From: a virus
Strand: one strand, 5' to 3'
Virus record (IMG/VR): IMGVR_UViG_3300043446_002680
Coordinates: 7,950 to 71,949 of that record
DNA: 64,000 bases
The translations under genes were made by a program, and so were the position numbers. Under the pieces are notes generated by a model that saw only the letters and a program-made list of their open reading frames with translations, was not told the origin of the DNA and did no database searches. This document shows, one piece after another, positions 1 through 46,033 of the stretch. Each line of letters starts with the position of its first letter. Within the stretch, counting starts at the first letter, position 1.

Positions 1-2
1 TT

Positions 3-227
3 GGTGTTAATAGTCTTGGACCGACTACTATCACACTTCCCAACAATCCTCCAGATTGTACAGAAATTATTGTAAAGGCTGAAATGGGCCCACCTCTGGG
101 CAACCGCAAAGTAACTGTGGCTGCTCCAGCAGGATCAAATATTGATGGCTCCTCAACCTATGTCATAGAAGTACCATACCAATCGGTAAATGTCTTATCG
201 CGAGGTGGCACATGGCATATTGTTTAA
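3..227 (+). CDS. 5'-truncated virion/fibre-like protein, C-terminus paralogous to 468..1103
   Basis: Frame 3 reads GVNSLGPTTITLPN...IDGSSTYVIEVPYQSVNVLSRGGTWHIV*, aligning with GVNSAAAVTITLPN...IDGKTTYVIGVPYQAVSVVFRAGSWRMI. Confidence 0.8.
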   Translation, partial: GVNSLGPTTITLPNNPPDCTEIIVKAEMGPPLGNRKVTVAAPAGSNIDGSSTYVIEVPYQSVNVLSRGGTWHIV

Positions 228-236
228 GGAGCATGC

Positions 237-455
237 ATGGATTACTATACATATCGTAAATTTTTAGACAGATATCCAGGACGCCCATATGGTCACTATT
301 ATGAGCCATACTATCCTGGTTACTATCCCTATGCGCCGTACCTAGGCATATACGGTAGCCAAATTGGCTACAACAATCAAAGTATCTACAATGCTGGCTG
401 GATGGCCGGAGTAAATCAAATCTCCAATATTAACAATATTGGGCGCCCCTACTAA
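237..455 (+). CDS. Tyr/Gly/Pro-rich small hypothetical protein
   Basis: AAGGAG RBS upstream; packed between neighbours. Confidence 0.7.
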   Translation: MDYYTYRKFLDRYPGRPYGHYYEPYYPGYYPYAPYLGIYGSQIGYNNQSIYNAGWMAGVNQISNINNIGRPY

Positions 456-467
456 CAGGAGAAATAG

Positions 468-1103
468 ATGAGTTACTTAAGTTCAGCCACCAGTAAACTA
501 GACTATGGTGTAGTTCGTGTAGGTGGCAATATAGATGTCACAGTTGATGGCGTAATCAGCGTACCACAAGACCTCAACACCAATAGTTCGGTTACCTTTG
601 CTGATATCAGCGTTACTGGTAATTTGTCTCTTAATGGTGCCAGTGTCGTAACCAGTATTACTCCTGTAGCAGGCAATGCAGGTATCACATTAGGCAATGT
701 AATTACCTCAGGCCCAGCAGCAGGATTTACTATCTATAATACTGGTGTTACCAAGTTAACAGCCGGTGCTGGCATCAGCTTGACCAGCAACACCGGCGAC
801 ATCGTGATCAGCAGTTATGGTGCTGACCTAATCAACGTCTATGGTACTACTACCAGTTACACAGCATCAATCACAGATGAATACATCGGTGTTAATTCAG
901 CCGCAGCGGTGACAATTACACTGCCTAACGGCATAGCCGGTCGTGTTTATACCATCAAAGATGAGTATGGACAAGGATCTGGCAAGATCACCATAAGTCC
1001 GCAGATTGGAGAACTCATAGATGGCAAGACCACTTATGTCATAGGTGTGCCTTATCAAGCAGTGAGTGTGGTATTTCGCGCCGGTTCATGGCGTATGATT
1101 TAA
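468..1103 (+). CDS. Putative virion structural/fibre protein
   Basis: AGGAG RBS; G/T/S/N-rich beta repeats (VTSITPVAG, GVTKLTAGAGISL). Confidence 0.7.
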   Translation: MSYLSSATSKLDYGVVRVGGNIDVTVDGVISVPQDLNTNSSVTFADISVTGNLSLNGASVVTSITPVAGNAGITLGNVITSGPAAGFTIYNTGVTKLTAGAGISLTSNTGDIVISSYGADLINVYGTTTSYTASITDEYIGVNSAAAVTITLPNGIAGRVYTIKDEYGQGSGKITISPQIGELIDGKTTYVIGVPYQAVSVVFRAGSWRMI

Positions 1104-1510
1104 TGGAGCAGGTCATGCAAGCAAACATAACTTATCCCGAACTTGACTATGGTAATTGGCCCAATGTCAGCCCGGCCTGGTGCAATGTCAATGTCGCAGT
1201 GTCTACTACGGCCATGAACAACTATGATGGCGAATACTGGTACTGGTGGCGTCCTGCAGACAATTTCATATTCTGGTACGACACGCCTTTTGCTGAAGAA
1301 CTCATAGATGGCAATCTCTGCTATCGTGTAAATGGCAATATCTGGATTTGCCCTATCAGTCCCGAAGGTAATCTAACACCAGAACCAAGACCCATGCCAG
1401 TGACATCAGGCAATGTAAAACCTATGTTGACTGTGACATCAGTACGAATGGAAAACCACGCCGAGCATGTAGCAGTAATGTTTGGACAAGTCTTAAACAA
1501 CTTGAAATAA
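1088..1510 (+). CDS. Hypothetical protein (start may be the ATG at 1115)
   Basis: Trp-rich ORF continuing the + strand operon. Confidence 0.6.
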   Translation: MAYDLMEQVMQANITYPELDYGNWPNVSPAWCNVNVAVSTTAMNNYDGEYWYWWRPADNFIFWYDTPFAEELIDGNLCYRVNGNIWICPISPEGNLTPEPRPMPVTSGNVKPMLTVTSVRMENHAEHVAVMFGQVLNNLK

Positions 1511-1512
1511 CA

Positions 1513-1586
1513 TGGTTGCGGGTCTAGGAGTCGAACCTAGAACGAGGGCTTATGAGACCTTCATGATACCTTTTCAACAACCCGCG
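1513..1586 (-). tRNA. tRNA-fMet (CAT)
   Basis: Cloverleaf starting CGCGGG, C1:A72 mismatch, loop CT-CAT-AA, encoded CCA. Confidence 0.85.
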
Positions 1587-1794
1587 ATTGTCTGGGTATG
1601 GACCTGAATTCCCTAAAACCCAGGTCCATAGTCTTCTGTGTCTTGGACGACAGTCCTTAGGCTAGACATCCGTACCTTGCAGCGCCAATTGCAAGTGTAT
1701 TTTAGTTGACGGGGCTCCCACCCGCCTCGCTCTGGGAGCACTGCTAACCACTAGGGATTGTGGCAACAAGTGTAGCGGGACTAATTTTTTAGGA

Positions 1795-1893
1795 ATGGCT
1801 GGTCAATGTTTTTGTTACCTGGCACTCTGCTGAATCAGGATTTGCACCTTTCAGGAGCGGATACTCTGAATACCCACCTTTAACAACGACCAT
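1795..1893 (-). ncRNA. Candidate structured ncRNA with long terminal stem and T-loop-like hairpin
   Basis: TGGTCGTTGTT/AACATTGACCA stem enclosing AGG-TGCAAAT-CCT. Confidence 0.4.
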
Positions 1894-1895
1894 CT

Positions 1896-1982
1896 ACCAT
1901 ATTGAAACACACTCATCACACACCGTACAACAGGCGATCAACTCTGTTGTCTTATAGGCATCAAAATGTGCTTCAATATGGT
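1896..1982 (-). ncRNA. Candidate ncRNA with 16-bp closing stem and internal hairpin
   Basis: ACCATATTGAAGCACA/TGTGTTTCAATATGGT; G-U wobble favours minus strand; inner ACAACAG/CTGTTGT. Confidence 0.55.
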
Positions 1983-2054
1983 GCCAGTGTTGCTGGCCGG
2001 GGAATCCCGGTCCTCGTCGCTTAGAGAACGACTACTTACCACCCCGCTCTAAAC

Positions 2055-2128
2055 CATATTAGAACACACTACTCATCTGCTTTGGACAACCGCTGCAATT
2101 TGTCTGTTCGGTAATGTGTTCTAATATG
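2055..2128 (-). ncRNA. Duplicated structured ncRNA, copy 1
   Basis: 18-bp stem around a core near-identical to 5552..5624. Confidence 0.7.
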
Positions 2129-2149
2129 CTCGTTACTTACTATACCCAT

Positions 2150-2178
2150 ATTATAGCAACTATTGTCGCCGCTGTCAA
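2150..2178 (-). promoter_or_regulatory. Sigma70-type promoter
   Basis: TTGACA-17-TATAAT, perfect consensus. Confidence 0.85.
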
Positions 2179-2199
2179 CCTGTTGTATTAGAACTACAG

Positions 2200-2500
2200 T
2201 GTTGGCTACTAGTTCCCACCAGCCCCAACTTGAGTTGTCACCCTGTCCCGGCCCTTTAGTAGAGGTGGCCAGCCTTTGTTGTACCTTTACCAATGATAAC
2301 CCAATATCAACCTCCCGGAATCGCCCGGGAGGGGAGGCCGTATCAACTAGCCTATGCCAAACCTAACGCGGGCATCTACGCCATACTGAGTAACCGGGGT
2401 ATGGCCCGGGGATTCTGTTCAGGGACGCACTGTTGTTGTCGTTTAAGAGCGAGCGGGTCACGCAGCTCTCCCCGGGGGGTTGGGCCCAATCCTGGCCCTG
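2200..2500 (-). ncRNA. GC-rich multi-hairpin non-coding block (one or more ncRNAs)
   Basis: Many inverted repeats (CCTCCCGG/CCGGGAGG, GCCATAC/GTATGGC, CAGGG/CCCTG); no credible ORF. Confidence 0.45.
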
Positions 2501-2504
2501 TATA

Positions 2505-2579
2505 TGGTGCCCGGTGATGGAATCGAACCACCGCTATTCGCCGTGTAAAGGCGACGTTTTACCATTAAACTAACCGGGC
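2505..2579 (-). tRNA. tRNA-Val (TAC)
   Basis: Cloverleaf, TCGCC-TT-TAC-AC-GGCGA, CCA. Confidence 0.95.
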
Positions 2580-2582
2580 TAG

Positions 2583-2659
2583 TGGAAGTAGGGATCGGAT
2601 TCAAACCGATGAAAAGATGCTTTGCAGGCATCCGCATTAGATCACTCTGCCACCCTACT
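2583..2659 (-). tRNA. tRNA-Cys (GCA)
   Basis: GATGC-CT-GCA-AA-GCATC, U73, CCA. Confidence 0.92.
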
Positions 2660-2665
2660 ATGTTT

Positions 2666-2742
2666 TGGCTCCCCAGCGTGGGCACGATCCACGGACCTTC
2701 TGATTAACAGTCAGACGCTACTACCAACTGAGCTACTGGGGA
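2666..2742 (-). tRNA. tRNA-Asn (GTT)
   Basis: TCTGA-CT-GTT-AA-TCAGA, CCA; T-loop ATCGTGC. Confidence 0.92.
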
Positions 2743-2750
2743 ATAAAATT

Positions 2751-2842
2751 TGGTGGAAGGTGTGGGATTCGAACCCACGGTCCATATTACTACAGACAAC
2801 ACCTTAGCAGGGTGCCGATTTAAGCCGCTCATCCAACCTTCC
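2751..2842 (-). tRNA. tRNA-Ser (GCT)
   Basis: Long variable arm, CT-GCT-AA loop, CCA. Confidence 0.92.
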
Positions 2843-2886
2843 AAATTCAACGCTATTATTAAGGAACGATTACTGCTATTTCAATG

Positions 2887-2915
2887 AGTATAGCAACTAA
2901 TCACCTTGTTGTCAA
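2887..2915 (-). promoter_or_regulatory. Sigma70-type promoter internal to the tRNA array
   Basis: TTGACA-17-TATACT. Confidence 0.8.
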
Positions 2916-2922
2916 CTTGATA

Positions 2923-2999
2923 TGGCACCACTGGCAGGATTCAAACCCACGACCCCCGGGTTCGTAGCCCGGTGCTCTATTCAGCTGAGCTACAGTGGT
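2923..2999 (-). tRNA. tRNA-Arg (ACG)
   Basis: CCGGG-CT-ACG-AA-CCCGG, CCA. Confidence 0.93.
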
Positions 3000-3002
3000 A
3001 AT

Positions 3003-3644
3003 CTAGTAGATTAAACGATCTACAAATTCACTTAACAGTGTATGATGATGGTATTCATGCCAGTAAGGCTGCATGTATGGTTTACTGTACCAGTAGATGT
3101 CACTTTCTGGATGTGGGCCTATTAGTCCAATGCGTCCTTGTATGACAGCAGCACTGTCACCATTGGTATACCGAGCAATGACTCGATGCCGACTGCCATG
3201 ATCTACCAAGGCACAGCCATCATAAAAGTACATGTATTCTCTGTGTTTCTGCCAGTCAACGGCGACCACAGTGCCAAAACTGCGTCTGATGTCTGTGTTT
3301 TCTCTGCGTATATACTGCACAGGCTCAATGCCACGCACAATGTCAAAGTAGTGGTGTCCGGCCCAATACGCACCCATGCAGATGCCTAGATAAGCACCGC
3401 CAGTGGCCACATACTCACGCACAGCATCTGCACCTGATTCGCATATTTTATGCCAACTATCACTGTCGCCGATGCCGCCAGGAAAGCACACAAGATCATA
3501 TCTGCTGAGTGCTAGTGATGTCAGCGATCTGCTGTCAATACAGTGTACTGAGTATTCTGCACTAAGTGCTCGAATTAGGCCGTGTGCGCTTTGTACACTG
3601 CATTCAGGATGATGCACAAACACGGCCACTGTGGGCTTGATCAT
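3003..3644 (-). CDS. BPL-N-like class I glutamine amidotransferase-fold protein
   Basis: FPGG, GGAYLGICMGAY nucleophile elbow, GPHPE. Confidence 0.8.
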   Translation of the reverse strand: MIKPTVAVFVHHPECSVQSAHGLIRALSAEYSVHCIDSRSLTSLALSRYDLVCFPGGIGDSDSWHKICESGADAVREYVATGGAYLGICMGAYWAGHHYFDIVRGIEPVQYIRRENTDIRRSFGTVVAVDWQKHREYMYFYDGCALVDHGSRHRVIARYTNGDSAAVIQGRIGLIGPHPESDIYWYSKPYMQPYWHEYHHHTLLSEFVDRLIY

Positions 3645-3665
3645 AGTGATATTTAGTGGTGTTGT

Positions 3666-3741
3666 TGGGGTAACCTATGAGGATTGAACTCATACTTTCT
3701 CGGTCACAACGAGAGGTGCAGACCACTACACTAAGGTCACC
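3666..3741 (-). tRNA. tRNA-His (GTG)
   Basis: G-1/C73, TT-GTG-AC loop, CCA. Confidence 0.92.
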
Positions 3742-3748
3742 ATTGATC

Positions 3749-3823
3749 TGGCACCACCGGAGGGACTCGAACCCCCATAGGACGCTTTAGAAGAGCGTTG
3801 CCTTTCCATTAGACTACGGTGGT
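3749..3823 (-). tRNA. tRNA-Arg (TCT)
   Basis: ACGCT-CT-TCT-AA-AGCGT, CCA. Confidence 0.92.
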
Positions 3824-3830
3824 ACATGTA

Positions 3831-3909
3831 TGGTGCCGCCTCTTGGAATCGAACCAAGTTCTCGAGTTCTTCAGACTCGTGCTGAAATGACCACACTAGC
3901 TCAAGCGGC
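3831..3909 (-). tRNA. tRNA-Phe (GAA)
   Basis: CGAGT-CT-GAA-GA-ACTCG, CCA. Confidence 0.9.
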
Positions 3910-3913
3910 ATTG

Positions 3914-3988
3914 TGGTGCTGATAGCAGGATTTGAACCTGCGGCCTCTGACTTACCAAGTCAGCGATCTTCCCCTGATCTATATCAGC
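3914..3988 (-). tRNA. tRNA-Thr (GGT)
   Basis: CTGAC-TT-GGT-AA-GTCAG, CCA. Confidence 0.93.
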
Positions 3989-3993
3989 ATGGA

Positions 3994-4068
3994 TGGAAGG
4001 GGGTCTGGGTTACGATCCCAGTCACCTACTTTCAAAGAGTAGTATCTGCTCCAATCGATTTACCCCCA
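3994..4068 (-). tRNA. tRNA-Gln (TTG)
   Basis: CTACT-CT-TTG-AA-AGTAG; U1:U72 mismatch; T-loop ATCGTAA; CCA. Confidence 0.8.
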
Positions 4069-4074
4069 ATTGTT

Positions 4075-4150
4075 TGGCCTGACCGGAGGGACTCGACCCC
4101 CGACCCGCTGGGTAGAAGCCAGCTGCTCTAATCCACTGAGCTACGGTCAG
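4075..4150 (-). tRNA. tRNA-Arg (TCT), second divergent copy
   Basis: GCTGG-CT-TCT-AC-CCAGC; T-loop lacks one T; CCA. Confidence 0.8.
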
Positions 4151-4156
4151 ATTGTT

Positions 4157-4232
4157 TGGTACCTGTTCCTGGGTTCGAACCAGGGACCTTTCGATTATCG
4201 GTCGAATGCTCTACCAACTGAGCTAAACAGGC
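4157..4232 (-). tRNA. tRNA-Ile (GAT)
   Basis: TTCGA-CC-GAT-AA-TCGAA, CCA. Confidence 0.93.
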
Positions 4233-4237
4233 ATGGA

Positions 4238-4332
4238 TGGTGGAGAGCGGAGGAGTCGAACCCCATCCCCTTCTTCAGCGGAACCTAGTTTTCAAGACTA
4301 GTCGGCGAACCATCTCGCCTGCATCACTCTCC
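4238..4332 (-). tRNA. tRNA-Ser (TGA) with 8/4 acceptor/T-stem
   Basis: GGAGAGTG/CGCTCTCC 8 bp; GGGG/CCTC 4 bp; CTAGT-CT-TGA-AA-ACTAG; long V-arm. Confidence 0.85.
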
Positions 4333-4337
4333 ATGAG

Positions 4338-4413
4338 TGGTGGTAATGGTAGGACTCGAACCTACGATAGATACCATATGAAGGTACCGCATTGGCCGCT
4401 ATGCTACATTACC
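4338..4413 (-). tRNA. tRNA-Met or Ile2 (CAT)
   Basis: GTACC-TT-CAT-AT-GGTAT, CCA. Confidence 0.88.
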
Positions 4414-4465
4414 AATAAATGGCGTCGGTGGGGGTTCCAAACCGCTCACCGAGATAAATAACTGT

Positions 4466-4972
4466 ATGCTTAAATGTTTACATTGTCAAACTGATCTACT
4501 AAAAAAAGATCAAAAGAAATTCTGTTCTAGGTCATGTGCTGCGTCACATAATAATACCGGCAGGAGACGCCATTCAAAACCAGAATCAATACATTCAATG
4601 GTCAAATTATGTAAGACCTGCGGCAAAGAAACGCCTAGGCGTGTATTTTGCTCTGACAGTTGTAATCCTAAAAAAAATAGGACTCTTTCAGACGAAGAAA
4701 AATTAAAAAAACACAGAGCTAATCACAATGAAGCATGGGCAAGATATATGGCTAAACGAAAAAATCAAACTCCAAAAGATGTTGACATCAAGAAACTTCA
4801 AGAGTTTTATGCTAATTGTCCAAAAGGATACGAAGTTGACCATATAATCCCGATATCTAAAGGTGGGTTACACACATTAGAAAATCTCCAATATCTTACT
4901 GTAAGTGAAAATAGACGGAAGTCTAATAAAATATTGGCTCCGAGTGAGGGACTCGAACCCCCGAGGGTATGA
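4466..4972 (+). CDS. HNH homing endonuclease with N-terminal Cys4 zinc-finger repeats
   Basis: EVDHIIPISKGGLH...NLQYL...N; CxxC/FCSxxC repeats; TAAATA box just upstream; antisense in tRNA array. Confidence 0.9.
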   Translation: MLKCLHCQTDLLKKDQKKFCSRSCAASHNNTGRRRHSKPESIHSMVKLCKTCGKETPRRVFCSDSCNPKKNRTLSDEEKLKKHRANHNEAWARYMAKRKNQTPKDVDIKKLQEFYANCPKGYEVDHIIPISKGGLHTLENLQYLTVSENRRKSNKILAPSEGLEPPRV

Positions 4973-5019
4973 ACCGGCGGTTTTGGAGACCGCTGCAATC
5001 GCCGCTATGCGAACCCGGA
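4935..5019 (-). tRNA. tRNA-Trp (CCA) with long variable arm
   Basis: GCGGT-CT-CCA-AA-ACCGC; 14-nt V-region with GGT/ACC stem; G73; CCA. Confidence 0.85.
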
Positions 5020-5025
5020 ATTGAT

Positions 5026-5100
5026 TGGTGGAGGATAACGGATTCGAACCGATGACTCCGCGGTGCAAACGCGGTGTTTTCCCAATTATACTAATCCCCC
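5026..5100 (-). tRNA. tRNA-Ala (TGC)
   Basis: G3:U70, TT-TGC-AC loop, CCA. Confidence 0.95.
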
Positions 5101-5105
5101 AATCT

Positions 5106-5180
5106 TGGCGGTCTGTACGGGAGTCGAACCCGTCTCTATGGCGTGACAAGCCATTATTCTTACCGATGAACTAACAGACC
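5106..5180 (-). tRNA. tRNA-Asp (GTC)
   Basis: ATGGC-TT-GTC-AC-GCCAT, CCA. Confidence 0.95.
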
Positions 5181-5184
5181 AATA

Positions 5185-5262
5185 TGGTACGGGCACTTGG
5201 ACTCGAACCAAGAACTTACTGGTTAAAAGCCAGTTACTCTAACCAAATTGAGTTATACCCGC
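5185..5262 (-). tRNA. tRNA-Lys (TTT)
   Basis: ACTGG-CT-TTT-AA-CCAGT, CCA. Confidence 0.95.
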
Positions 5263-5270
5263 ATCGTGTT

Positions 5271-5345
5271 TGGCACACCCAACGGGAATCGAACCCGTCT
5301 TTGCGGATTGAAAGTCCACTGTCCTAACCGATAGACGATGGGTGC
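5271..5345 (-). tRNA. tRNA-Glu (TTC)
   Basis: GTGGA-CT-TTC-AA-TCCGC, CCA. Confidence 0.95.
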
Positions 5346-5350
5346 ATAAC

Positions 5351-5427
5351 TGGTGCCGGTTGTCGGATTCGAACTGACGACCTTTGCTTTACAAGAGCAC
5401 TGCTCTGGCCAACTGAGCTAAACCGGC
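5351..5427 (-). tRNA. tRNA-Thr (TGT)
   Basis: CT-TGT-AA loop, cloverleaf, CCA. Confidence 0.92.
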
Positions 5428-5432
5428 TTATT

Positions 5433-5520
5433 TGGTGGGGACTGAAGGAATCGAACCTAACTGCCGCCACTCTGCATATTATGGCAAGTGATTTACAGTC
5501 ACCCGCAGAGAACAGCCCCC
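5433..5520 (-). tRNA. Non-canonical tRNA-Tyr-like gene (GTA) lacking a D-arm
   Basis: 8-bp acceptor, GGTGA-CT-GTA-AA-TCACT, enlarged V-region, AGG-TTCGATT-CCT, ACCA end. Confidence 0.75.
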
Positions 5521-5551
5521 ATATAAGTTTACAGCACTCTAGTGAATGCTG

Positions 5552-5624
5552 GTAATAAAGCAGACTACTCATCTGCTTTGGACTTGCCGCTGCAATTTGT
5601 CTGTTCGGCAGTCTGCTTTATTAC
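5552..5624 (-). ncRNA. Duplicated structured ncRNA, copy 2
   Basis: 17-bp stem of different sequence around the same core as 2055..2128. Confidence 0.7.
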
Positions 5625-5738
5625 TGACAGTTTTTACACATCCGGGTTACCGCCCCAGACTTATCATCCCTGTCACCGCCCACATTATAGCTGATGTTTA
5701 TAGTGCCAGCAGGCTCGCGTTGCCTTACACTTTACCGC

Positions 5739-5780
5739 ACAAAACAAAAGACCCTAGGTCTTTCGATCCTAGGGTCTTGG
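5739..5780 (-). terminator. Intrinsic terminator (attenuator) upstream of the tRNA array
   Basis: AAGACCCTAGG/CCTAGGGTCTT stem, GAAA loop, followed by TTGTTTT. Confidence 0.85.
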
Positions 5781-5831
5781 AAGTGTTGATGTAAATTACT
5801 TTTACATCTGGATCTCCCGAGACCCCGGACC
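5765..5831 (-). promoter_or_regulatory. Putative antiterminator helix
   Basis: GGTCCGGGGTCTCGGGAG (5814-5831) pairs with CTTCCAAGACCCTAGGATC (5765-5783), the whole 5' arm of the terminator. Confidence 0.7.
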
Positions 5832-5930
5832 TTTGTGCTCATTGGTGCGATCATAACTCGACGACTGCCATGAGCACATGGGTGTGCTATGACTAATCTT
5901 TGCTGTTACTGATCCCACTGTTAGTTGCAT
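5802..5930 (-). CDS. 42-aa leader peptide MQLTVGSVTAKISHSTPMCSWQSSSYDRTNEHKGPGSREIQM (not in ORF track)
   Basis: GAGGA RBS 5 nt before ATG; lies between promoter and terminator. Confidence 0.75.
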   Translation of the reverse strand: MQLTVGSVTAKISHSTPMCSWQSSSYDRTNEHKGPGSREIQM

Positions 5931-5969
5931 TACTGTCCTCGTTGTTTAGTGTTTTGCTGCTATGTTCGT

Positions 5970-5998
5970 ATAATACGACTTATTTTACTTGTTGTCAA
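5970..5998 (-). promoter_or_regulatory. Sigma70-type promoter of leader/tRNA array
   Basis: TTGACA-17-TATTAT. Confidence 0.75.
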
Positions 5999-6000
5999 CC

Positions 6001-6036
6001 TGTTGTATTTATACCACGTGTTGTATTTATGCCGCA
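6001..6036. promoter_or_regulatory. Tandem 18-bp operator-like boxes overlapping a T4-type late TATAAATA box (6006-6013, minus)
   Basis: TGTTG-N8-CCACG and TGTTG-N8-CCGCA. Confidence 0.55.
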
Positions 6037-6266
6037 TAATCTGCATACTTAATTCCAAACCAGGTAGCTAGACTTTCTGTGTAGAAAGTAAACCTAGTTT
6101 TTCGCATGCTGATTATTTCCCCAAAAGAAGCCAAGTTCATGTCTAGGCGCTCTGGTGTATAAGCAAAATCAAAATCTTGGCCCTGTACTAGTCCTTGGTC
6201 TTTTAGTTCACGTACGATTTTAAGTATACTATCAACTCTTAGGTCTGTCAATATGATGTCAATCAT
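6027..6266 (-). CDS. Hypothetical protein
   Basis: ORF in tightly coupled operon. Confidence 0.75.
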   Translation of the reverse strand: MIDIILTDLRVDSILKIVRELKDQGLVQGQDFDFAYTPERLDMNLASFGEIISMRKTRFTFYTESLATWFGIKYADYAA

Positions 6267-6409
6267 GTGGTCAAGGGCTCCGGTAATTCATAAGGTACTA
6301 CAATGATCACCGAGTAATGGTTATCGATGATATAGGCTCCAAGTTCCCAGCCCAAGATCACTGCTACAACTACAGTGATGACAAAATACTGTATGTACCA
6401 GGCTCGCAT
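6263..6409 (-). CDS. 48-aa membrane protein (not in ORF track)
   Basis: MRAWYIQYFVITVVVAVILGWELG...; ATGA overlap with the next gene. Confidence 0.6.
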   Translation of the reverse strand: MRAWYIQYFVITVVVAVILGWELGAYIIDNHYSVIIVVPYELPEPLTT

Positions 6410-6414
6410 GGATG

Positions 6415-6648
6415 CTAGTATTCTTTTACCATGTTGATGGTAATCGAGCCCGAGTGCTCTAACACAAACAAGGTAGCATCATGCGGGTCACGAAAATGAA
6501 ACTCCAAGTAGTCCTGTGTGGGATGTGTGAGATATCTATCACCAGGTAAACCAAATACTTCTAGTGCTCTGGCTGTGACTTGATTCCAAGGGGTAGGGCT
6601 GTTGAGATTCCAGCCTACCCTGACCACAGTTAAATTTCTACTTGACAT
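6415..6648 (-). CDS. Hypothetical protein
   Basis: ORF in operon. Confidence 0.7.
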   Translation of the reverse strand: MSSRNLTVVRVGWNLNSPTPWNQVTARALEVFGLPGDRYLTHPTQDYLEFHFRDPHDATLFVLEHSGSITINMVKEY

Positions 6649-7454
6649 GCAGCATCGAACTCCATGTGTTCATAACCTTGATAGCCACGTGGATTGGCTA
6701 TGACACGGCACTCACCAATTCGGTAGTCTTGGCGCTGATGTATATGGCCATGAATCCAAGCACGAATTTGTGGGTTATCCAAGATTACCGGTTCTAGATT
6801 ACTAGCATATCCACCATTCATCAACTTTTCGTGCACATAGTCTCTGTGAATACTTTGGAAACTAGGAGCATGATGTGTGATGACCACAGTAGGCATATCT
6901 CTGTGTTCACGCAACCTATCCTTCAACCAACCCACAGTGGCACGATGTACTCCGCGAGTGATGTTTGGTGTTAACCTATGCCATGCATCTGTAGCTGGAT
7001 TATGATATTTGACCACACGGTAATCATTCATCAGTCCGCGCAGTGCACTAGCAGTGGCAGGATCGTCGCCATTAAGGTCAGTCCATAAGCTGCAACCCAG
7101 AAATCGCACGCCGTCTATGACAACATCATCTAATTCCATGAGTCTTACATTGTCAGGCATGATGGCTCTAAGTCGTTGCTCAGTGCTGAGAAACTCTGCG
7201 TGATAGTGTTCGTGGTTGCCCATGACATATAAGACTTCGCGATATTTGGCACATTCTTCTACGAAGAATCTGCGAGCACGATCTGGACGACCATACTTGG
7301 TGACGTCTGCGCCCAATGTGGTAAAGGCAGGGTCATAGGTCTGCTCGATGTTCCTAACTTCAGCAACATCGCCGGCCAAGACCAGTATATCCCCGCCCGG
7401 CAACTCCAGGTCACCAAACTCGAGATGCAAATCACTCATGTAGCTAATTTTCAT
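6630..7454 (-). CDS. Calcineurin-like metallophosphoesterase
   Basis: SDLH, AGD, GNHE, THHAP, HGHIH motifs. Confidence 0.92.
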   Translation of the reverse strand: MKISYMSDLHLEFGDLELPGGDILVLAGDVAEVRNIEQTYDPAFTTLGADVTKYGRPDRARRFFVEECAKYREVLYVMGNHEHYHAEFLSTEQRLRAIMPDNVRLMELDDVVIDGVRFLGCSLWTDLNGDDPATASALRGLMNDYRVVKYHNPATDAWHRLTPNITRGVHRATVGWLKDRLREHRDMPTVVITHHAPSFQSIHRDYVHEKLMNGGYASNLEPVILDNPQIRAWIHGHIHQRQDYRIGECRVIANPRGYQGYEHMEFDAACQVEI

Positions 7455-7813
7455 TTAATTAACACTCTTTCCTCAACAACTCTATCTGACCATAACCGAT
7501 GTCCACGCACACGAACAACATCTGCGGTATTTTGTGGATATAAGGTCCACTGTTCACGCCAATAGTTTTCTGTCATACCTTGATCACAGATGACCATGTA
7601 AACTTCATAATGCCTATGTCCATTGTATCTGGCACGTAGTAAAATTGCCTGTACAATACTATTAGCAGGATTACGCTGTACTGGCCTATCCCCTAACATA
7701 TTTAACAATTGTAGTTCATCCCAGCCTGCATAGTCAGTAAGATCCACAATGCTTTCAATGCCAAAACTATCCCAACTGAATAAGAATAAACGTTCGTTAT
7801 CTTGTAGTTGCAT
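7451..7813 (-). CDS. Hypothetical protein
   Basis: RBS AAGGTAG; coupled ORF. Confidence 0.75.
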   Translation of the reverse strand: MQLQDNERLFLFSWDSFGIESIVDLTDYAGWDELQLLNMLGDRPVQRNPANSIVQAILLRARYNGHRHYEVYMVICDQGMTENYWREQWTLYPQNTADVVRVRGHRLWSDRVVEERVLIK

Positions 7814-7833
7814 TTGCTACCTTTATAAACAAT

Positions 7834-7858
7834 AAAAGGCTGTACTAGACAGCCTTTT
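7834..7858 (-). terminator. Intrinsic terminator (possibly bidirectional)
   Basis: AAAAGGCTGT/ACAGCCTTTT inverted repeat. Confidence 0.65.
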
Positions 7859-7877
7859 GTACTGCTTACTGCATCAA

Positions 7878-8123
7878 TTAGACAAAACGGCTAGCACGAC
7901 TGCCGGTTACATCACGTGCACTCACGGAGTAAGTCATACGTCCGTCGGAATTGGGTTTGGTGACAACCTTCAAGCCTGCATGACGAAACTCAGTCATACG
8001 TGCACGAATATTCTTGATACCATACAGTGATTCGGCTTGGCGTGCACTCAGGCTACGACCAGTACCACGCAGATAGTTCTCAAGAAAAACGTTTTGGGTT
8101 GAAGAAATTTTAGTAAATGCCAT
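7878..8123 (-). CDS. Small winged-helix DNA-binding protein
   Basis: Basic; LSARQAESLYGIKNIRARMTEFR HTH-like pattern. Confidence 0.65.
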   Translation of the reverse strand: MAFTKISSTQNVFLENYLRGTGRSLSARQAESLYGIKNIRARMTEFRHAGLKVVTKPNSDGRMTYSVSARDVTGSRASRFV

Positions 8124-8150
8124 ATAAATATCCTTTGTTAAAGTAATACT

Positions 8151-8179
8151 AGTATACAGATTGTGTTAGACATTGTCAA
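8151..8179 (-). promoter_or_regulatory. Sigma70-type promoter
   Basis: TTGACA-17-TATACT. Confidence 0.8.
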
Positions 8180-8187
8180 CAAGCAAT

Positions 8188-8802
8188 TTACTCGAAATTT
8201 TCCCAGTCACCGCCTGGTTTGGGTACCCAACCAATTTGTTGTAAGTCTTGCCTAATTTCCTCAGTGATGCTACCTTCACCTACATAACGCTCGTACTGAT
8301 GCTTGTATTGCCGGCGTTGAGCATCAGTCCACCCTTCTTGCACACTTAGGTCCACAGGGTTGCGTATGCCACTACAGTACCAATCTATGTAGTCTCCTGA
8401 ACCCATCATGTCTGCCACAATACCGCCCGAGTAGCGCCATGAACAGTGCCAACTACGATCCTCAAGAATGGGCATGACATCCAGTTTGACGAAGCTATTG
8501 TTGCACATGGCAGCATAGAGATTCTGTGCGTAGTAGTCATTGCTACGAACCTTTTCACACATGAATTCACTAGTACGTAAGTCATACTCCATGTTATGCT
8601 CACGCCATGCAGGATCCTGCTCTCGCTCGAGTCTGAGAGCTGCTTCGCTTTTAAAGACTTCCATCATGGCGTCTACAGTGTCATCATTTTCCGGAGTTCG
8701 TCCCTGTTCTGCCATTCTTGCCAAATACTTGGTAGGTTGGAAAGTATTACGATCCGGGCTGCGACTCAACATCGCGGGCGAGTGTGACTGTTCCTTCATC
8801 AT
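8188..8802 (-). CDS. Hypothetical phage protein (start uncertain)
   Basis: Long ORF with YAQNLYAAMCN...SWR...DYIDWYCSG. Confidence 0.75.
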   Translation of the reverse strand: MMKEQSHSPAMLSRSPDRNTFQPTKYLARMAEQGRTPENDDTVDAMMEVFKSEAALRLEREQDPAWREHNMEYDLRTSEFMCEKVRSNDYYAQNLYAAMCNNSFVKLDVMPILEDRSWHCSWRYSGGIVADMMGSGDYIDWYCSGIRNPVDLSVQEGWTDAQRRQYKHQYERYVGEGSITEEIRQDLQQIGWVPKPGGDWENFE

Positions 8803-8971
8803 CTATATTCCATATCAGTGTGTCGCCTATGCGCCACCCATTGGCTGCTAGTGCCTCTTCGGGAATAGGCATAACAAGATCACCAGTTTCTGGATCTTGC
8901 TCTAAGGTTACAATCCAGGTTGTTGGTGTTATCTCGGCTGTGGTTGTTGCAGGATCAATCTTTGATTTCAT
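8747..8971 (-). CDS. AbrB/MazE-like swapped-hairpin domain protein
   Basis: GDLVMPIPEEALAANGWRIGDTL pattern. Confidence 0.6.
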   Translation of the reverse strand: MKSKIDPATTTAEITPTTWIVTLEQDPETGDLVMPIPEEALAANGWRIGDTLIWNIDDEGTVTLARDVESQPGS

Positions 8972-9173
8972 GTTCTTGTATCAATCTTTTGGCGAGATCG
9001 AAATCCTCTCTTGTTCTAAATCTAAAGGCCGGAGCTGCCATAGTAGTCTGCACAATGTCGTAACCAATCTGACGATTGCCTAAAAGCCTGACCATGTGAT
9101 CACGGCTCCATCTGTCTAAAGCAAAGACTTCTCGTAGTTCAGGAATGTTAGTAAATTGTATTCGTAGTGTCAT
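8955..9173 (-). CDS. Hypothetical protein
   Basis: Coupled ORF. Confidence 0.65.
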   Translation of the reverse strand: MTLRIQFTNIPELREVFALDRWSRDHMVRLLGNRQIGYDIVQTTMAAPAFRFRTREDFDLAKRLIQEHEIKD

Positions 9174-9454
9174 AATGGTTTAATCTCAACTACATTCATA
9201 ACTCTGAAACTGCGCCACTGTGCAATGTCTGTGGCCCAGGCGCTTATGGTTTCTAATTTTAGCACTTTGGGTTTGGTGTCTGCAACCTGTTCTACTACCA
9301 AACGGGCTGGCAATAGATCAGGTTTTAGCGTACAAGGCATGACTCTAGTACTACCATCTACTTTGGTAAAGGTAACTTCATAAATGCCTTCCCGTAGCAG
9401 ACTTTCTAACCACATGTAACGCTCTAGTTCATTATTGCCCACTAGTTCAATCAT
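9170..9454 (-). CDS. SH3/WYL-like small phage protein
   Basis: VTFTKVDGSTRVMPCTL...WRSFR motif. Confidence 0.7.
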   Translation of the reverse strand: MIELVGNNELERYMWLESLLREGIYEVTFTKVDGSTRVMPCTLKPDLLPARLVVEQVADTKPKVLKLETISAWATDIAQWRSFRVMNVVEIKPL

Positions 9455-9693
9455 GTATGATCCTTACCTAATTCATCTAACAACATTTTCTGACTGGCTG
9501 CTCGTAGGCTATCACGCTCGATCTGATCCACTCTAGCACTGATTAGCTTGATCATCTGAGCTAATTGCTGCTCACCTTCGTCACGCCAATGGCTGTATTC
9601 TACACCCACCGTGCTGCGATAATAATACCGATTATTATCCTGCATTTCGCGTATGGTACCATACAGCATGTCTTTGATCATTTGCTTGTCCAT
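9451..9693 (-). CDS. Hypothetical protein (start MDKQMIK)
   Basis: Start moved to avoid overlap with the ligase. Confidence 0.7.
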   Translation of the reverse strand: MDKQMIKDMLYGTIREMQDNNRYYYRSTVGVEYSHWRDEGEQQLAQMIKLISARVDQIERDSLRAASQKMLLDELGKDHT

Positions 9694-9694
9694 A

Positions 9695-11032
9695 CTACAA
9701 TTTTTCTCCAATCTCGAAACCGCGAAAGCGTAAAAACCTCGGAAACCTGAGCGAATAGCTGCCATCTTGATTTTGAGTAACAGCATCTGCACGAACCTCG
9801 ACGACCTGCCCCTTAACACTATGCCGACTATGCCAAATCCCAGTACGAAGCTCATCGCTGTAGCCGCTGCCCACGTTAACACGAATTCTACGTCCGTCAT
9901 CCTCACCCTCACAAACCAGGGCACCAAGGCGCCCGAGATTTTTACCAGTGCCTGCTTCAACGTCAACAATATTTAAGCTAACTTCAATAAAAGGCTTAAG
10001 TTTCAACCATGACACACTACGCTTACACTCATAAGGCGCCGCTGTGTCCTTGATCATGATACCTTCGTAGCCGCCTGCAATGGCTTCACGATTGATCTCG
10101 CGATAGCGAGCCTGTCCTGCTTGGGTATCTAAGTCTACTAGCTCTTGACCTAGTACACGCACACTTGGCAAAGCTGTCTCATGTTGCTGATAAAATGCCT
10201 GTAGAGCATGACTACGTTCTAGTTGGGTAGCTAGACTGCGACCCTGCTCAAAGTCTGCCAAAGGCAAGCAATCAAACAGGTGTAGTACAGCATCGTTAGC
10301 CCGTACATTACTCTTACGATGTACCTGACGCATCAAGTCTTGGAAACTCTCACTCATGATCTCGCCATCAAACACCATGGCTTCGGTAAGATTGTTGGCA
10401 ATGGCGTGGAACTCAGCCTTGACATGTGCAAAATTCACAAGCTCTTTACCATTCCTACTAAACTGATCAACCCTGCCGTCTGGATGCACAATAGTGATAA
10501 CACGAACTCCATCCAACTTGACTTCGACCAGTTTTTTTCCTGCAACCTTGCCTTCGTGATTAGCACTATCATGAGCAAGTTGACAGCCAAACACAGGCAC
10601 GCTATAGCCAGGATAGCGATGCTCTACCACCTTGTTGATAGTCTTTTCGCTAACACCACAGCGTAGGTCCTTAATAAGGATACGACGGTACCATCTATTC
10701 CACTGCTCAACAGTACTAGCCAGCATCATGTGATTCAGCATGTCACGAGCCATGTTGCCAGTGATCTCTCTGTTGACAAAGCCTGTGATGGCCAAGGCAA
10801 AGGTATCCCAGTTCATACCATGGTCGCTGGTTAGTTGATCAGTTGCCTTCTTTTCTGGCACTTGTTTGATGCCAAAGGTAATCATGGGATCCAGAGCCAA
10901 GCGGCAACCCTCAAAGAATTCAGAGTTGCCGGCTTCTGCTTGAGCCTCAATAATCTGCTCCTTGTTGGTACGCAGATTATGTGTTTCCAATGCTGAGATA
11001 ACTTGCCAGGGCTTATCCACCTTAGCCTCCAA
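9695..11032 (-). CDS. ATP-dependent DNA ligase
   Basis: KLDGVR, DGEI, EGIMIK, WLKLKP, SLRFPRF. Confidence 0.95.
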   Translation of the reverse strand: MEAKVDKPWQVISALETHNLRTNKEQIIEAQAEAGNSEFFEGCRLALDPMITFGIKQVPEKKATDQLTSDHGMNWDTFALAITGFVNREITGNMARDMLNHMMLASTVEQWNRWYRRILIKDLRCGVSEKTINKVVEHRYPGYSVPVFGCQLAHDSANHEGKVAGKKLVEVKLDGVRVITIVHPDGRVDQFSRNGKELVNFAHVKAEFHAIANNLTEAMVFDGEIMSESFQDLMRQVHRKSNVRANDAVLHLFDCLPLADFEQGRSLATQLERSHALQAFYQQHETALPSVRVLGQELVDLDTQAGQARYREINREAIAGGYEGIMIKDTAAPYECKRSVSWLKLKPFIEVSLNIVDVEAGTGKNLGRLGALVCEGEDDGRRIRVNVGSGYSDELRTGIWHSRHSVKGQVVEVRADAVTQNQDGSYSLRFPRFLRFRGFEIGEKL

Positions 11033-11677
11033 TTAATGTACCAAACCAAAACGCCGAGCGCACACTGGGCCATAGCCTAACTCTGTGCTACGACTATCTT
11101 TGAGACCGTGATTGCAAAAACTGCAAGCACCAGTTAGACGTCCATACTTACCAGCAGTAGCTTCAGGCTCTGCGGCAAACTCTTGTACTAATGCTACGAC
11201 ATCAGCACCAGCTTGTCTAGTAGCATGGAAGTCACCATTGACATCAATGCGACCAAAGTACTTATTGGCACCAAAGGGACCACCGTCTGTTACAAGAATT
11301 TGGCCAGCGTACTTGCTAGCGGGACCAGCACGACCAAACGCCACAGGTTGACCCTCAATGCTTTGTAACTTGACCTTGATACGCTTGAGAGTCTGTGCGG
11401 CACGATCAAACATGTCCTGAATACGCTGTACATTAACCTGTACAGCGGCGGGTGCTGGGGCAGGATTGGTTGCACGTTGGACAAGGGTGTCGACCCAGGC
11501 CAACTGCTTGTCGCTGAGACGACCAAAACGATAGAAGTTGCTGACTAAACTACCAGCGAACTCTGCGTCACGCACAGACATTGCGCTCATAGCATCACGT
11601 AGAGCCTGCACTTGGGGTTCCTGACTAGCGTCAGGGCTAACAACACGAGGAGCACGATAAAAACCTTTGTATGCCAT
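11033..11677 (-). CDS. DUF6011-like zinc-finger protein
   Basis: C-terminal CSFC...S...GYGPVCA. Confidence 0.7.
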   Translation of the reverse strand: MAYKGFYRAPRVVSPDASQEPQVQALRDAMSAMSVRDAEFAGSLVSNFYRFGRLSDKQLAWVDTLVQRATNPAPAPAAVQVNVQRIQDMFDRAAQTLKRIKVKLQSIEGQPVAFGRAGPASKYAGQILVTDGGPFGANKYFGRIDVNGDFHATRQAGADVVALVQEFAAEPEATAGKYGRLTGACSFCNHGLKDSRSTELGYGPVCARRFGLVH

Positions 11678-11707
11678 TTTGTATCTCCGTTGTTTCAGTG
11701 TACCGTT

Positions 11708-11736
11708 AGTATAGCAAAAATGATCAACCCTGTCAA
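11708..11736 (-). promoter_or_regulatory. Sigma70-type promoter
   Basis: TTGACA-17-TATACT. Confidence 0.8.
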
Positions 11737-11744
11737 CCTTAGGG

Positions 11745-12065
11745 TTAATGCGTGTTTAGTGCCGGAGCACATGAATTTACAATTTCGCGCTCCACAGCGT
11801 GAGCAGGCTTGCGTCCACGTACAATGTCAACTAACAACATGACGTGAGCGTCTGCGCCGTGAGTACGAATACTGTGGCACAAAGCCCACGACTTGTTCTC
11901 AGTTACAGCACGACGAACATGCTTTTGCCAACGTATTTTGAGAGCACGATTAATTTGGCTACCACATACTGTGATGCCAACATAGTGCTCGTTGGTGACA
12001 ACATTCACTACCATATATAGTGCATGTTTAGTGTCTTGCCTACGTTTACGAGTGCGTTTTTCCAT
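11745..12065 (-). CDS. GIY-YIG nuclease-family protein (start MEKRTRK)
   Basis: ALYM...YVGIT, R, E, LN motifs. Confidence 0.75.
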   Translation of the reverse strand: MEKRTRKRRQDTKHALYMVVNVVTNEHYVGITVCGSQINRALKIRWQKHVRRAVTENKSWALCHSIRTHGADAHVMLLVDIVRGRKPAHAVEREIVNSCAPALNTH

Positions 12066-15222: not shown

Positions 15223-16188
15223 TTATGCCCTTAGCTCTGGGGGTAAATTAGCGCCAGTGGCACCAGCGGCAATAAGATTAGTACCTGTATAGGTATACAT
15301 TACTTTGGAGTCGCCTTTGGGTTGCCGACCTTGATAGGCAACATGCACCCAATTTCCTTCATAAATTAATTGACTGTAAGAGTAATTGTTTAGCATGTGT
15401 TTGAATACACGTTTACTAAAGTCTTGTTTTTCAGCCTGACTAGGATTACCGGTCGCACTAATATCAACTGCACACCCTATACTATGATCACTGTTATTTG
15501 ATCCGCCTATGTAATTATTGTATGCTGTGGTCCTGAATGCACTGGTAATTCGAAATTTAAATCCATCTTGTACCAATCTATCTAAAATGTTAGTGCATAA
15601 AGCTATCCAGTTACACTCTATTTGTTCTTTAGTAAAACCGTTTTGTGCTTCAATAGGCATTTTGCTGTCTGCTAATTTAAAATAAGCACTATTGGTACAT
15701 CCATTTAACGGTATAGGCAATGGGGTCGGCGCCGATTCGGCACCAGCATCACCAGGCGTATTCTCGTGATAGGTAGGTAACGATGAGCTGACCTGTGACT
15801 CTTCGTTGACCAAACTGGATATTCCTTGATTGGTATTTTCGTAGACGATTCTACCGTCTACTACCTGAGTACCTGGCGATAATAGATTTGGGACTCCTGA
15901 CGCTGTAATATTACCTACTTCTACTTGACAACTGCCGGTTAATACTGCATCGAAACAGCTGGTTATACTACCTACATGAGCCAATGGACGATTGTTTACT
16001 CTGACGTCACAAGCACCATTTAAAATACAACTAGGTGGATGTTTATTACCTCGTAAACTTAGATGAGGCATAGTAGTATCGCCTACACGAGCAGCAGGAG
16101 AATTCTCTATTAGTACATCGCAGGACCCTGTGCAGATTAAACCGCCTAGGCCAACACAGTCTCGTCGTGCTCGTGCAGCTTTGGCCAT
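15223..16188 (-). CDS. PAAR domain fused to peptidase M15A domain
   Basis: PAARVGD/PLAHVGS repeats; ITSAFR...SDH...AVD...WVHV. Confidence 0.85.
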   Translation of the reverse strand: MAKAARARRDCVGLGGLICTGSCDVLIENSPAARVGDTTMPHLSLRGNKHPPSCILNGACDVRVNNRPLAHVGSITSCFDAVLTGSCQVEVGNITASGVPNLLSPGTQVVDGRIVYENTNQGISSLVNEESQVSSSLPTYHENTPGDAGAESAPTPLPIPLNGCTNSAYFKLADSKMPIEAQNGFTKEQIECNWIALCTNILDRLVQDGFKFRITSAFRTTAYNNYIGGSNNSDHSIGCAVDISATGNPSQAEKQDFSKRVFKHMLNNYSYSQLIYEGNWVHVAYQGRQPKGDSKVMYTYTGTNLIAAGATGANLPPELRA

Positions 16189-44555: not shown

Positions 44556-44768
44556 TCATCCCAAAAACCGTTTTTTAATGTCCGCCTGAATAGCTTTGAC
44601 TGCTTGATTCCACCCATCGTCATCACCAACCCATTTCAACTTGCTTAATTCTAACACATAGTCTTCAACAAGTCTACGAATGATGGCACTTGGGTAAGCA
44701 TCCCCGGGATATGTTAAGTCCACATCCCGGGCTGCTTGTTGAGCAATGCGTCTTGCTAAGTCGTTCAT
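44556..44768 (-). CDS. Hypothetical protein
   Basis: ATGA overlap with the ATPase. Confidence 0.65.
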   Translation of the reverse strand: MNDLARRIAQQAARDVDLTYPGDAYPSAIIRRLVEDYVLELSKLKWVGDDDGWNQAVKAIQADIKKRFLG

Positions 44769-45799: not shown

Positions 45800-45832
45800 T
45801 GTGTGTCGCTCCGTGTTGTTTACTGTACCACT

Positions 45833-45861
45833 ATTATAGAGGAAAACAAAAACCCAGTCAA
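45833..45861 (-). promoter_or_regulatory. Sigma70-type promoter
   Basis: TTGACT-17-TATAAT. Confidence 0.75.
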
Positions 45862-45880
45862 CTGGCGGGTTATTCGCCAG

Positions 45881-45958: not shown

Positions 45959-46033
45959 TCCAGCAAAGGCGCATGATGTGGACAGCGCCCTTGTTGGAAA
46001 TCGCACCGGGGATCATAGGGTTTTCTGCAGATT

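Follow-up and report, generated by a model that had tools for sequence, protein, structure and literature searches.

The stretch of viral DNA analysed here, referred to below as the window (64,000 nucleotides; positions 7,950 to 71,949 of the IMG/VR virus record IMGVR_UViG_3300043446_002680), carries on its minus strand an array of transfer RNA (tRNA) genes, 20 or more of which are bracketed by two copies, A and B, of one hairpin RNA (2055-2128 and 5552-5624, minus strand). These two hairpins and the RNA family to which they belong are the subject of this study. The 71,949-bp record from which the window is taken has a completeness of 21% according to CheckV, which implies a genome of several hundred kb. 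The DNA ligase and the metallophosphoesterase encoded by the record share less than 40% identity with anything in GenBank phages, and the public sequencing runs that contain the stretch derive from metagenomes of freshwater, lakes, estuaries and aquaculture. The record is a fragment of an uncultured freshwater jumbo phage. Each hairpin is found at the head of a transcription segment, as had been proposed in an earlier note made from the sequence alone: a consensus promoter ends 21 nt upstream of copy A, and a terminator-like hairpin, called an attenuator in that note, lies upstream of copy B. As documented below, this placement generalises to the family. The positions of the features are collected in Table 1.

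On the minus strand, both copies consist of CCGAACAGACAAATTGCAGCGG, followed by TT or CAA (UU or CAA in the RNA) and GTCCAAAGCAGATGAGTAG, with a total of 22 + 19 = 41 identical nt. When up to three mismatches were allowed, the 22-nt half (2090-2111 and 5587-5608) and the 19-nt half (2069-2087 and 5565-5583) were each found exactly twice in the window, against shuffle expectations of 0.00 and 0.01 matches, respectively, and the whole viral record contained copies A and B only. This bore out the earlier observation of 41 shared nucleotides, and the same was true for the closing stems, which differ in sequence and yet pair along their length. The 18-nt closing arms of copy A are 94% complementary as DNA with one G-T, whereas those of copy B are perfectly complementary over 15 nt (5552-5566 and 5610-5624) and are extended in the RNA fold to 17 pairs, including one G-U. 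Folding of the minus strand yielded -27.4 kcal/mol for copy A and -28.8 kcal/mol for copy B, with z-scores of -4.9 and -5.1 relative to dinucleotide shuffles. The resulting architecture comprises a long helix, P1 (18 bp in copy A and 17 bp in copy B), an asymmetric internal loop with C-CGAACAGACAAA as its 5′ strand and AUGA as its 3′ strand, and an apical helix, P2.

Table 1. Features of the tRNA region in the window and of the related loci (L numbers designate related phage loci).
Feature	Position	Strand	Basis or remarks
Copy A, P1	5′ arm 2111-2128; 3′ arm 2055-2072	minus	Pairing, fold, covariance model, family alignments
Copy A, loop and P2	5′ strand CGAACAGACAAA 2099-2110; P2 with its loop 2077-2098; 3′ strand AUGA 2073-2076	minus	
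Copy B, P1	5′ arm 5608-5624; 3′ arm 5552-5568	minus	Pairing, fold, covariance model
Copy B, loop and P2	5′ strand 5596-5607; P2 5573-5595; 3′ strand AUGA 5569-5572	minus	
Hairpin C	1896-1982	minus	Stem ACCAUAUUGAAGCACA / UGUGUUUCAAUAUGGU, same class as copy A; other conserved core ("beta")
Sigma-70-type promoter	2178-2150	minus	TTGACA, 17 nt, TATAAT (12/12); kept in L003, L004, L006
tRNA array between copies A and B	2505-5520	minus	ARAGORN, 19 tRNAs
Two further probable long-arm tRNAs	4241-4333, 5437-5520	minus	
Small 8-bp hairpin (CAGCAUUC, loop, GAGUGCUG)	5532-5551	minus	Directly past copy B; read by eye
Perfect TATAAT with weak -35	about 5683-5688	minus	58 nt upstream of copy B; conserved in relatives
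Terminator-like hairpin with U run	5765-5745	minus	Between the 5998 promoter-like site and copy B; "attenuator" of the earlier note
Promoter-like site (11/12)	5970-5998	minus	About 345 nt upstream of copy B
Hairpin cassettes	window 1896-1982; L006 10062-10604; L021 15475-15970; L098 4491-4804		Often tandem, conserved spacers of 100-130 nt
Permuted transfer-messenger RNA (tmRNA) loci	L154 1116-1504; L189 9232-9610; L190 2595-2973	minus (L154)	Tag peptide ANDSQFALAA

Exact scans of IMG/VR with each of the two halves revealed that close relatives keep both copies in place. One of these relatives (L020) has a shortened apical part, on the basis of which the architecture of P1, internal loop and variable P2 was proposed. 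A first gapped pattern, built on both strands of the loop and applied to viral contigs, gave 38 matches in 33 stretches, corresponding to 31 distinct copies, several of them in contigs of 340-400 kb. A second pattern, in which the 3′ loop strand was left unspecified, returned 52 new stretches, 18 with the stem and 34 with unrelated sequence, and the two patterns together identified 43 distinct copies in viral contigs. A scan of metagenomes added at least 121 matches in at least 120 stretches; among the matches listed, 111 had the stem or were cut by a contig end, and there were at least 53 different cores and at least 85 distinct elements. The element measures about 62-81 nt. With a covariance model (R2), on which copies A and B score 81 and 80.4 bits, one or two copies per genome (77-91 bits) were detected in five out of five phage records, three of them complete, and the next matches did not exceed 32 bits.

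No known RNA family accounted for these copies. In the covariance-model search of positions 1-12000 of the window against Rfam 15 (E≤10), the sole overlap was mir-142, on the opposite strand, with 20.7 bits (E 2.9) against a gathering score of 57, and the search of eight further loci at E≤5 gave no match on the element. Among GenBank phages, megablast with 4.4 kb found no match and blastn with the element found only a chance match (E = 3). In the genomes of 185,579 bacterial and archaeal species, the gapped pattern gave two stretches only, in one genome each; both were devoid of the stem and of tRNAs and are therefore attributed to chance. When the covariance model was run on the surroundings of a related phosphoesterase gene (73 loci, 37-74% identity), this core was absent and only hairpins with the same stem and other cores were found, and a full-text search of the literature brought up no paper on such an element. 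The element may be among the 8,495 unnamed candidate structured RNAs from IMG/VR that are reported in PMC10690425. We conclude that it represents an uncatalogued family of hairpin RNAs, encoded in tRNA operons by a clade of uncultured jumbo phages from freshwater.

The fold was assessed on a MAFFT alignment of the 43 distinct viral copies, and an earlier set of 31 gave a similar result. Paired cells amounted to 93.0%, as compared with 25-51% when the partners were slid by one to three columns. Changes on both sides were seen in 17 out of 25 pairs (15/21 in P1 and 2/4 in P2), and the observed covariation score was reached by none of 500 shuffles. P2 occurs as GGC/GCC, UGC/GCA or GGU/ACC and is capped by tetraloops, pentaloops or, in the lineage of the window, an extended arm. 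G-U pairs are common, with, for example, 33, 28 and 42 of the 43 copies at three of the positions, which indicates that the fold works only on the strand of the tRNAs. P1 contains 17-23 uninterrupted pairs in 37/43 copies, 17 being the mode.

By contrast with these variable helices, the consensus loop, with CGAACAG[A/U]CAAA on the 5′ side and AUGA on the 3′ side, is fixed apart from one position that is A or U and a single G-to-U change. Its strands are identical across genomes whose DNA ligases are 50-68% identical to that of the window. Even where the 3′ strand had been left out of the search pattern, 18/18 new matches with the stem still read (G/U)AUGAG, and the P1 bases beside the AUGA strand varied with compensation in these new copies. 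Together these comparisons strongly support the view, already put forward in the earlier note, that the element is a selected functional RNA: both helices covary, the G-U pairs are specific for one strand, and the loop is invariant at 50-68% ligase identity throughout many copies.

The position of the element within the tRNA operons, which the earlier note had missed, proved to be highly regular. All tRNAs of a locus are encoded on the strand of the element, both in the viral loci (42/42) and in those from metagenomes (96/96). Two types can be distinguished. The leader type, to which both copies of the window belong, has a 17-pair stem like that of copy B and no upstream tRNA, and stands at the head of the array. 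In the spacer type, P1 opens with the discriminator and CCA of the upstream tRNA and ends 0-15 nt before the next one; in L156 the element forms the entire spacer between two tRNAs. The 3′ end of an upstream tRNA lies inside P1 in 15/43 viral and 18/77 metagenome copies. In 11 of the 12 spacer-type cases examined, this end is located 16 pairs below the loop, as compared with 17 pairs in leader-type copies. The next tRNA follows within 15 nt in 10/43 viral and 21/71 metagenome copies, and within 200 nt in 31/43 and 59/71, respectively. Furthermore, a promoter matching at least 10 of 12 positions was present within 200 nt upstream in 14/29 cases versus 2/29 on the reverse complement, and in a second set in 26/71 versus 0/71. 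Many of these promoters are about 113-147 nt away, a distance equal to one leader plus one tRNA.

The stem of the element is not restricted to the core found in copies A and B, another feature that had escaped the earlier note. Arms of the type ACCAUAUUGAAGCACA.. and ..UGUGUUUCAAUAUGGU close at least six other cores, each conserved between phages, and hairpin C of the window is one example; its 5′ arm starts with ..CACCA, and it scores 29.6 bits on covariance model R2. In L006 and L021, up to four such hairpins follow copy A in tandem. In the distant phages L035, L047 and L076 the stem still heads the array with other cores, and in three complete genomes its arms (≤2 mismatches) are confined to the tRNA regions. 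A long hairpin of the same class also constitutes the intervening segment of the permuted tmRNA in L154, L189 and L190, where it occupies the interval between ..CCACCA and the coding piece's 5′ end; in permuted tmRNAs, this segment is the piece that is discarded through processing. In L154, the element itself is encoded about 340 nt downstream of the permuted tmRNA. We therefore regard the stem as a general connector that joins the CCA 3′ end of one RNA to the 5′ end of its successor, with the core of copies A and B as its most widespread cargo.

Two variants of these sister hairpins were also noted. In L047, the loop of the hairpin at the head of the array (15598-15687) encloses a near-perfect promoter-like sequence, TTGACT, 17 nt, TATAAT, and the RNA could not form the stem if this enclosed promoter were used. 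Hairpin C has 539 nt in place of its loop in one relative (joint 1913 to 1965).

To the genomic evidence we can add contigs assembled from the RNA libraries of three studies (X15, X16 and X19). Copy A is contained without differences in a 218-nt metatranscriptome contig covering 1969-2186 (X15, record 1), and a further contig, 1965-2111 (X16, record 9), also covers it. For copy B, a 180-nt contig (X19, record 29) fits only 5552-5625, the 74-nt hairpin, and has different flanks. Both copies are thus present in RNA libraries. The figures for sequencing depth, lower for the hairpins than for the adjoining tRNAs, are given per contig and cannot rank one against the other, and stretches without cover, such as 3040-3531, do not constitute a finding.

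Taken together, we favour the view that the element is a leader or spacer RNA module that is removed during tRNA maturation and whose loop serves as a protein-docking site, a reading of its function to which we assign a probability of roughly 45%. The hairpin would be transcribed within the tRNA precursor and cut away as the flanking tRNAs mature. Removal in maturation is suggested because P1 overlaps the CCA of the upstream tRNA, because the 5′ end of the next tRNA is near, and because of the parallel with the tmRNA segment. RNase P would cut at the 3′ side of the hairpin, while a host nuclease specific for double strands or for 3′ ends would act in or at P1. Cleavage by a host enzyme of the RNase III type would be compatible with the 16-23 uninterrupted pairs of the helix, and P1 offers the approximately 1.5-2 turns of uninterrupted double-stranded RNA in a transcript that characterise RNase III substrates. 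The invariant 12 x 4 loop, located 16-17 pairs above the base of P1, would then offer a docking site to a protein acting on the tRNA-operon transcript as it is being made. Among the functions listed in the earlier note, that of a processing element fits the start at CCA and the 5′ end of the next tRNA best, whereas that of an antitoxin mimic is unsupported, there being neither tandem repeats nor a toxin gene nearby. The evidence speaks neither for nor against a protein decoy.

Several observations weigh against this proposal. No RNase III gene was found in any of the five phage records, three of which are complete, and such a nuclease must consequently be the host's. As the same stem closes other cores, excision alone does not explain the invariance of the loop. 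Neither copy of the window has a tRNA directly upstream, and copy A is separated from the next called tRNA by 468 nt of other structured RNA. The contigs from the RNA libraries come without strand, ends or levels and may reflect carry-over of DNA. Lastly, a promoter-proximal place is equally compatible with antitermination and with an early small RNA, the two rival explanations to be taken most seriously.

According to the first of these rivals, the hairpin is a trans-acting small RNA of about 65 nt that is freed by the tRNA-processing enzymes and uses its loop to bind and titrate a protein of the host, which would make it a decoy carried within the tRNA array; candidates for this protein are nucleases, tRNA-directed defence factors and RNA-binding regulators. 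Precise release could be achieved by the enzymes that mature the adjoining RNAs, its loop is invariant, and it occupies an early place in strongly promoted operons. Stable RNAs of the T4 tRNA cluster, small RNAs from E. coli tRNA spacers and tRNA-hairpin transcripts of herpesviruses provide precedents. On the other hand, the loop strand showed no excess complementarity to nearby RNA, the longest run over 43 loci being 8.14 nt as compared with 8.15 nt after shuffling. We consider this explanation unlikely, although it leads the alternatives. Its specific form, in which a phage small RNA is freed by the host's tRNA-maturing enzymes and captures, through its loop, a protein of the host (a nuclease or a tRNA-directed defence factor, for example), is more doubtful than either of the two main rivals; if true, phage tRNA arrays would carry an RNA counter-measure besides spare tRNAs.

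The second rival, which we rank after the small RNA as likewise unlikely, is antitermination or an anti-Rho function, in which the hairpin, while being transcribed, would attach to the elongating RNA polymerase, either by itself or via a factor, and prevent termination within the long tRNA operon. Such mechanisms are known for the put RNA of HK022, for lambda nut and for the boxes in the leaders and spacers of rrn operons. Like put and nut, the element is a promoter-proximal cis RNA, as reflected in the promoter counts of 14/29 versus 2/29 and 26/71 versus 0/71. With one or two copies per genome and, in the window, one copy behind each of two promoter regions, its arrangement resembles that of putL and putR or of the rrn leader and spacer; the operons represent several kb of untranslated RNA, and an invariant loop would suit recognition by a conserved machine. 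Against this stands that the sole clear terminator-like site near copy B is located upstream of it, none having been found inside the array, that one long helix with an internal loop is unlike the two stem-loops of put and unlike nut, and that antitermination does not require exact abutment to tRNA ends.

A small self-cleaving ribozyme that has the internal loop as its core and cuts the tRNA precursor is very improbable. About 17 invariant nucleotides in a loop between two covarying helices, carried by phages and adjoining RNA ends that must be generated, would be in keeping with it, and the 3′ strand is partly similar to the conserved purine-rich strand of the hammerhead. Nevertheless, no Rfam ribozyme family matched at the E-value limits of 10 and 5 used above, there are only two helices, the freely varying loops of P2 leave no possible pseudoknot partner, and the sites that need cutting are 16-22 pairs away from the loop. 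Least credible of all is an element acting at the DNA level, whether as a mobile miniature inverted repeat, as a site of recombination or as a hairpin of single-stranded DNA, for instance an origin: conserved inverted repeats do close variable inserts, the loop of hairpin C is exchanged for 539 nt in one relative and the related stem of L047 encloses a promoter-like sequence, but there are only one or two copies per 340-400 kb genome, the arms (≤2 mismatches) are limited to the tRNA region, the tRNA strand carries the element in every case (with A-C mismatches in place of the G-U pairs on the opposite strand), inversion would need loops longer than the 30-40 nt present, and inspection by eye showed no target-site duplications.

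A number of known RNA and DNA elements were tried and rejected. The hammerhead ribozyme was discarded on the grounds of two helices only, the lack of a match to the hammerhead models and a base before GAUGA that varies between C and A. A sarcin-ricin or loop E (bulged-G) motif needs AGUA opposite GAA, with Watson-Crick pairs on either side, and a fixed U and A in GUAG. In 17 of the 18 new copies, GUAG is changed to GCAG, GCGG, GUGG, GUAU or GUGU with compensation in the 5′ arm, which assigns these bases to P1, and the sarcin-ricin register fails. A kink-turn of the box C/D type requires a three-nucleotide bulge and, after it, tandem sheared G-A pairs beside a canonical helix. G-A and A-G pairs are possible beside P1, but, as read from the alignment, the bulge is a single C and eight more nucleotides are unpaired on the other strand. 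A fragment or mimic of 5S ribosomal RNA (rRNA) was rejected, as RF00001 finds nothing in the record. The likeness to 5S rRNA comes down to two short colinear matches to E. coli rrfB, each reached by 16-274 out of 2000 shuffles, and the longer one lies in variable bases of P1. Models of the signal recognition particle RNA gave no match in positions 1-12000 of the window (Rfam 15, E≤10). The intervening segment of a permuted tmRNA, considered as the identity of the element, is true of the sister hairpin of L154 only. A miniature inverted-repeat transposable element or an integron attC site does not agree with one or two copies per genome, a strand fixed in 42/42 and 96/96 loci, and arms in the tRNA region only. 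A type III antitoxin RNA similar to ToxI was dismissed for want of a tandem array, and the neighbouring genes encode an HNH endonuclease, a glutamine-amidotransferase-like protein, a phosphoesterase and a ligase. For a DNA-inversion switch, an idea prompted by L047, the loops are too short.

The surroundings of the two copies hold further features. The probable long-arm tRNA at 5437-5520 is the positional counterpart of the tRNA-Tyr of the relatives and begins 31 nt past copy B. The small hairpin between them is retained in relatives, with a compensatory change in L008 (by eye). Upstream of copy B, the 11/12 promoter-like site is followed about 200 nt later by the terminator-like hairpin, and contigs from RNA libraries cover 5696-5825 and 5802-5892; the region 5745-5998 may give rise to a separate short transcript. 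The tRNA array is interrupted by two open reading frames (ORFs). The one at 3003-3644, on the strand of the tRNAs, encodes a glutamine-amidotransferase-like protein (BPL_N, 51.6 bits), and the one at 4466-4972, on the opposite strand, an HNH endonuclease. In L003, at least the first of these ORFs is missing from this place, and the genes for tRNA-Arg and tRNA-His are adjacent instead. No tmRNA was found in the window. In the tRNA-Met at 1513-1586, the first position of the acceptor stem is unpaired (C opposite A), as judged by eye, which is a hallmark of bacterial initiator tRNA.

Between this initiator-type tRNA-Met and hairpin C lies a conserved non-coding region of about 330 nt (1587-1913, presumably minus strand) that has no Rfam match. 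Contigs from RNA libraries (X16 and X19) extend over 1707-1826 and 1835-1913, and relatives such as L006 possess an extra inserted arm. The region 2209-2405, between a tRNA-Val and the promoter upstream of copy A, is also non-coding, presumably on the minus strand, and without a match in Rfam. It is covered by library contigs at 2220-2338 (X16) and 2269-2389 (X18), and adapter-like loose ends at 2209, 2397 and 2405 in X16 suggest a discrete small RNA of about 190 nt. Elsewhere in the window, an inverted repeat with perfect 17-bp arms and a loop of 44 nt (45881-45958; fold z = -7.0 on the minus strand) is located inside an ORF of 413 amino acids (44765-46006, minus strand). Its sequence is unrelated to the hairpins of the tRNA region.

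The tRNA arrays of phages are usually read as lists of tRNA genes, whereas here a strongly constrained RNA that is not a tRNA occupies a fixed place in the operon, in hundreds of sequences from uncultured freshwater jumbo phages. The sister hairpins and the tmRNA spacer, built on one stem, point to a shared way of punctuating and processing multi-RNA transcripts in these phages. Furthermore, a defined object of 65 nt with an invariant 12 x 4 loop is well suited to the biochemistry of cleavage, protein binding and antitermination.

Several known systems resemble the element in part. Like the element, the put, nut and rrn box RNAs are positioned in cis, are transcribed right after a promoter at the front of long transcripts and occur twice per genome or operon, but the element differs from them in its fold and has no terminators downstream in the window. 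The small RNAs from E. coli tRNA spacers and the tRNA-hairpin transcripts of murid herpesvirus are excised by tRNA-maturing enzymes, as the element could be; they act by base pairing or as precursors of microRNAs, while the conserved part of the element is an internal loop, and no complementarity of its loop strand to targets was found in nearby RNA. Like the element, the T4 RNAs rnaC and rnaD (species 1 and 2) are small non-tRNA RNAs encoded in a phage tRNA cluster, with which they share a precursor; their length of about 120-140 nt exceeds that of the element, for which GenBank phages gave no match. The RNase III stalks of rRNA operons, the early sites of T7 and the T4 tRNA cluster have in common with the element long double-stranded stems in untranslated leaders or spacers of polycistronic transcripts. 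As with the element, the stalks and T7 sites of one genome share their sequence and a stem with an internal loop. The 12 x 4 loop of the element exceeds the known requirements of RNase III in size and, by a wide margin, in conservation, and the helix of the element opens with the CCA of a tRNA. The segment of the permuted two-piece tmRNA (Rfam RF04321 and RF01849) is, like the element, a long hairpin that reaches from a CCA end to the 5′ end of the next RNA, and it is discarded. It lies inside a tmRNA and has no invariant internal loop, whereas the element has such a loop and is found in the leaders and spacers of tRNA operons. The broader kind to which the element belongs is that of the structured leader and spacer RNAs of stable-RNA operons.

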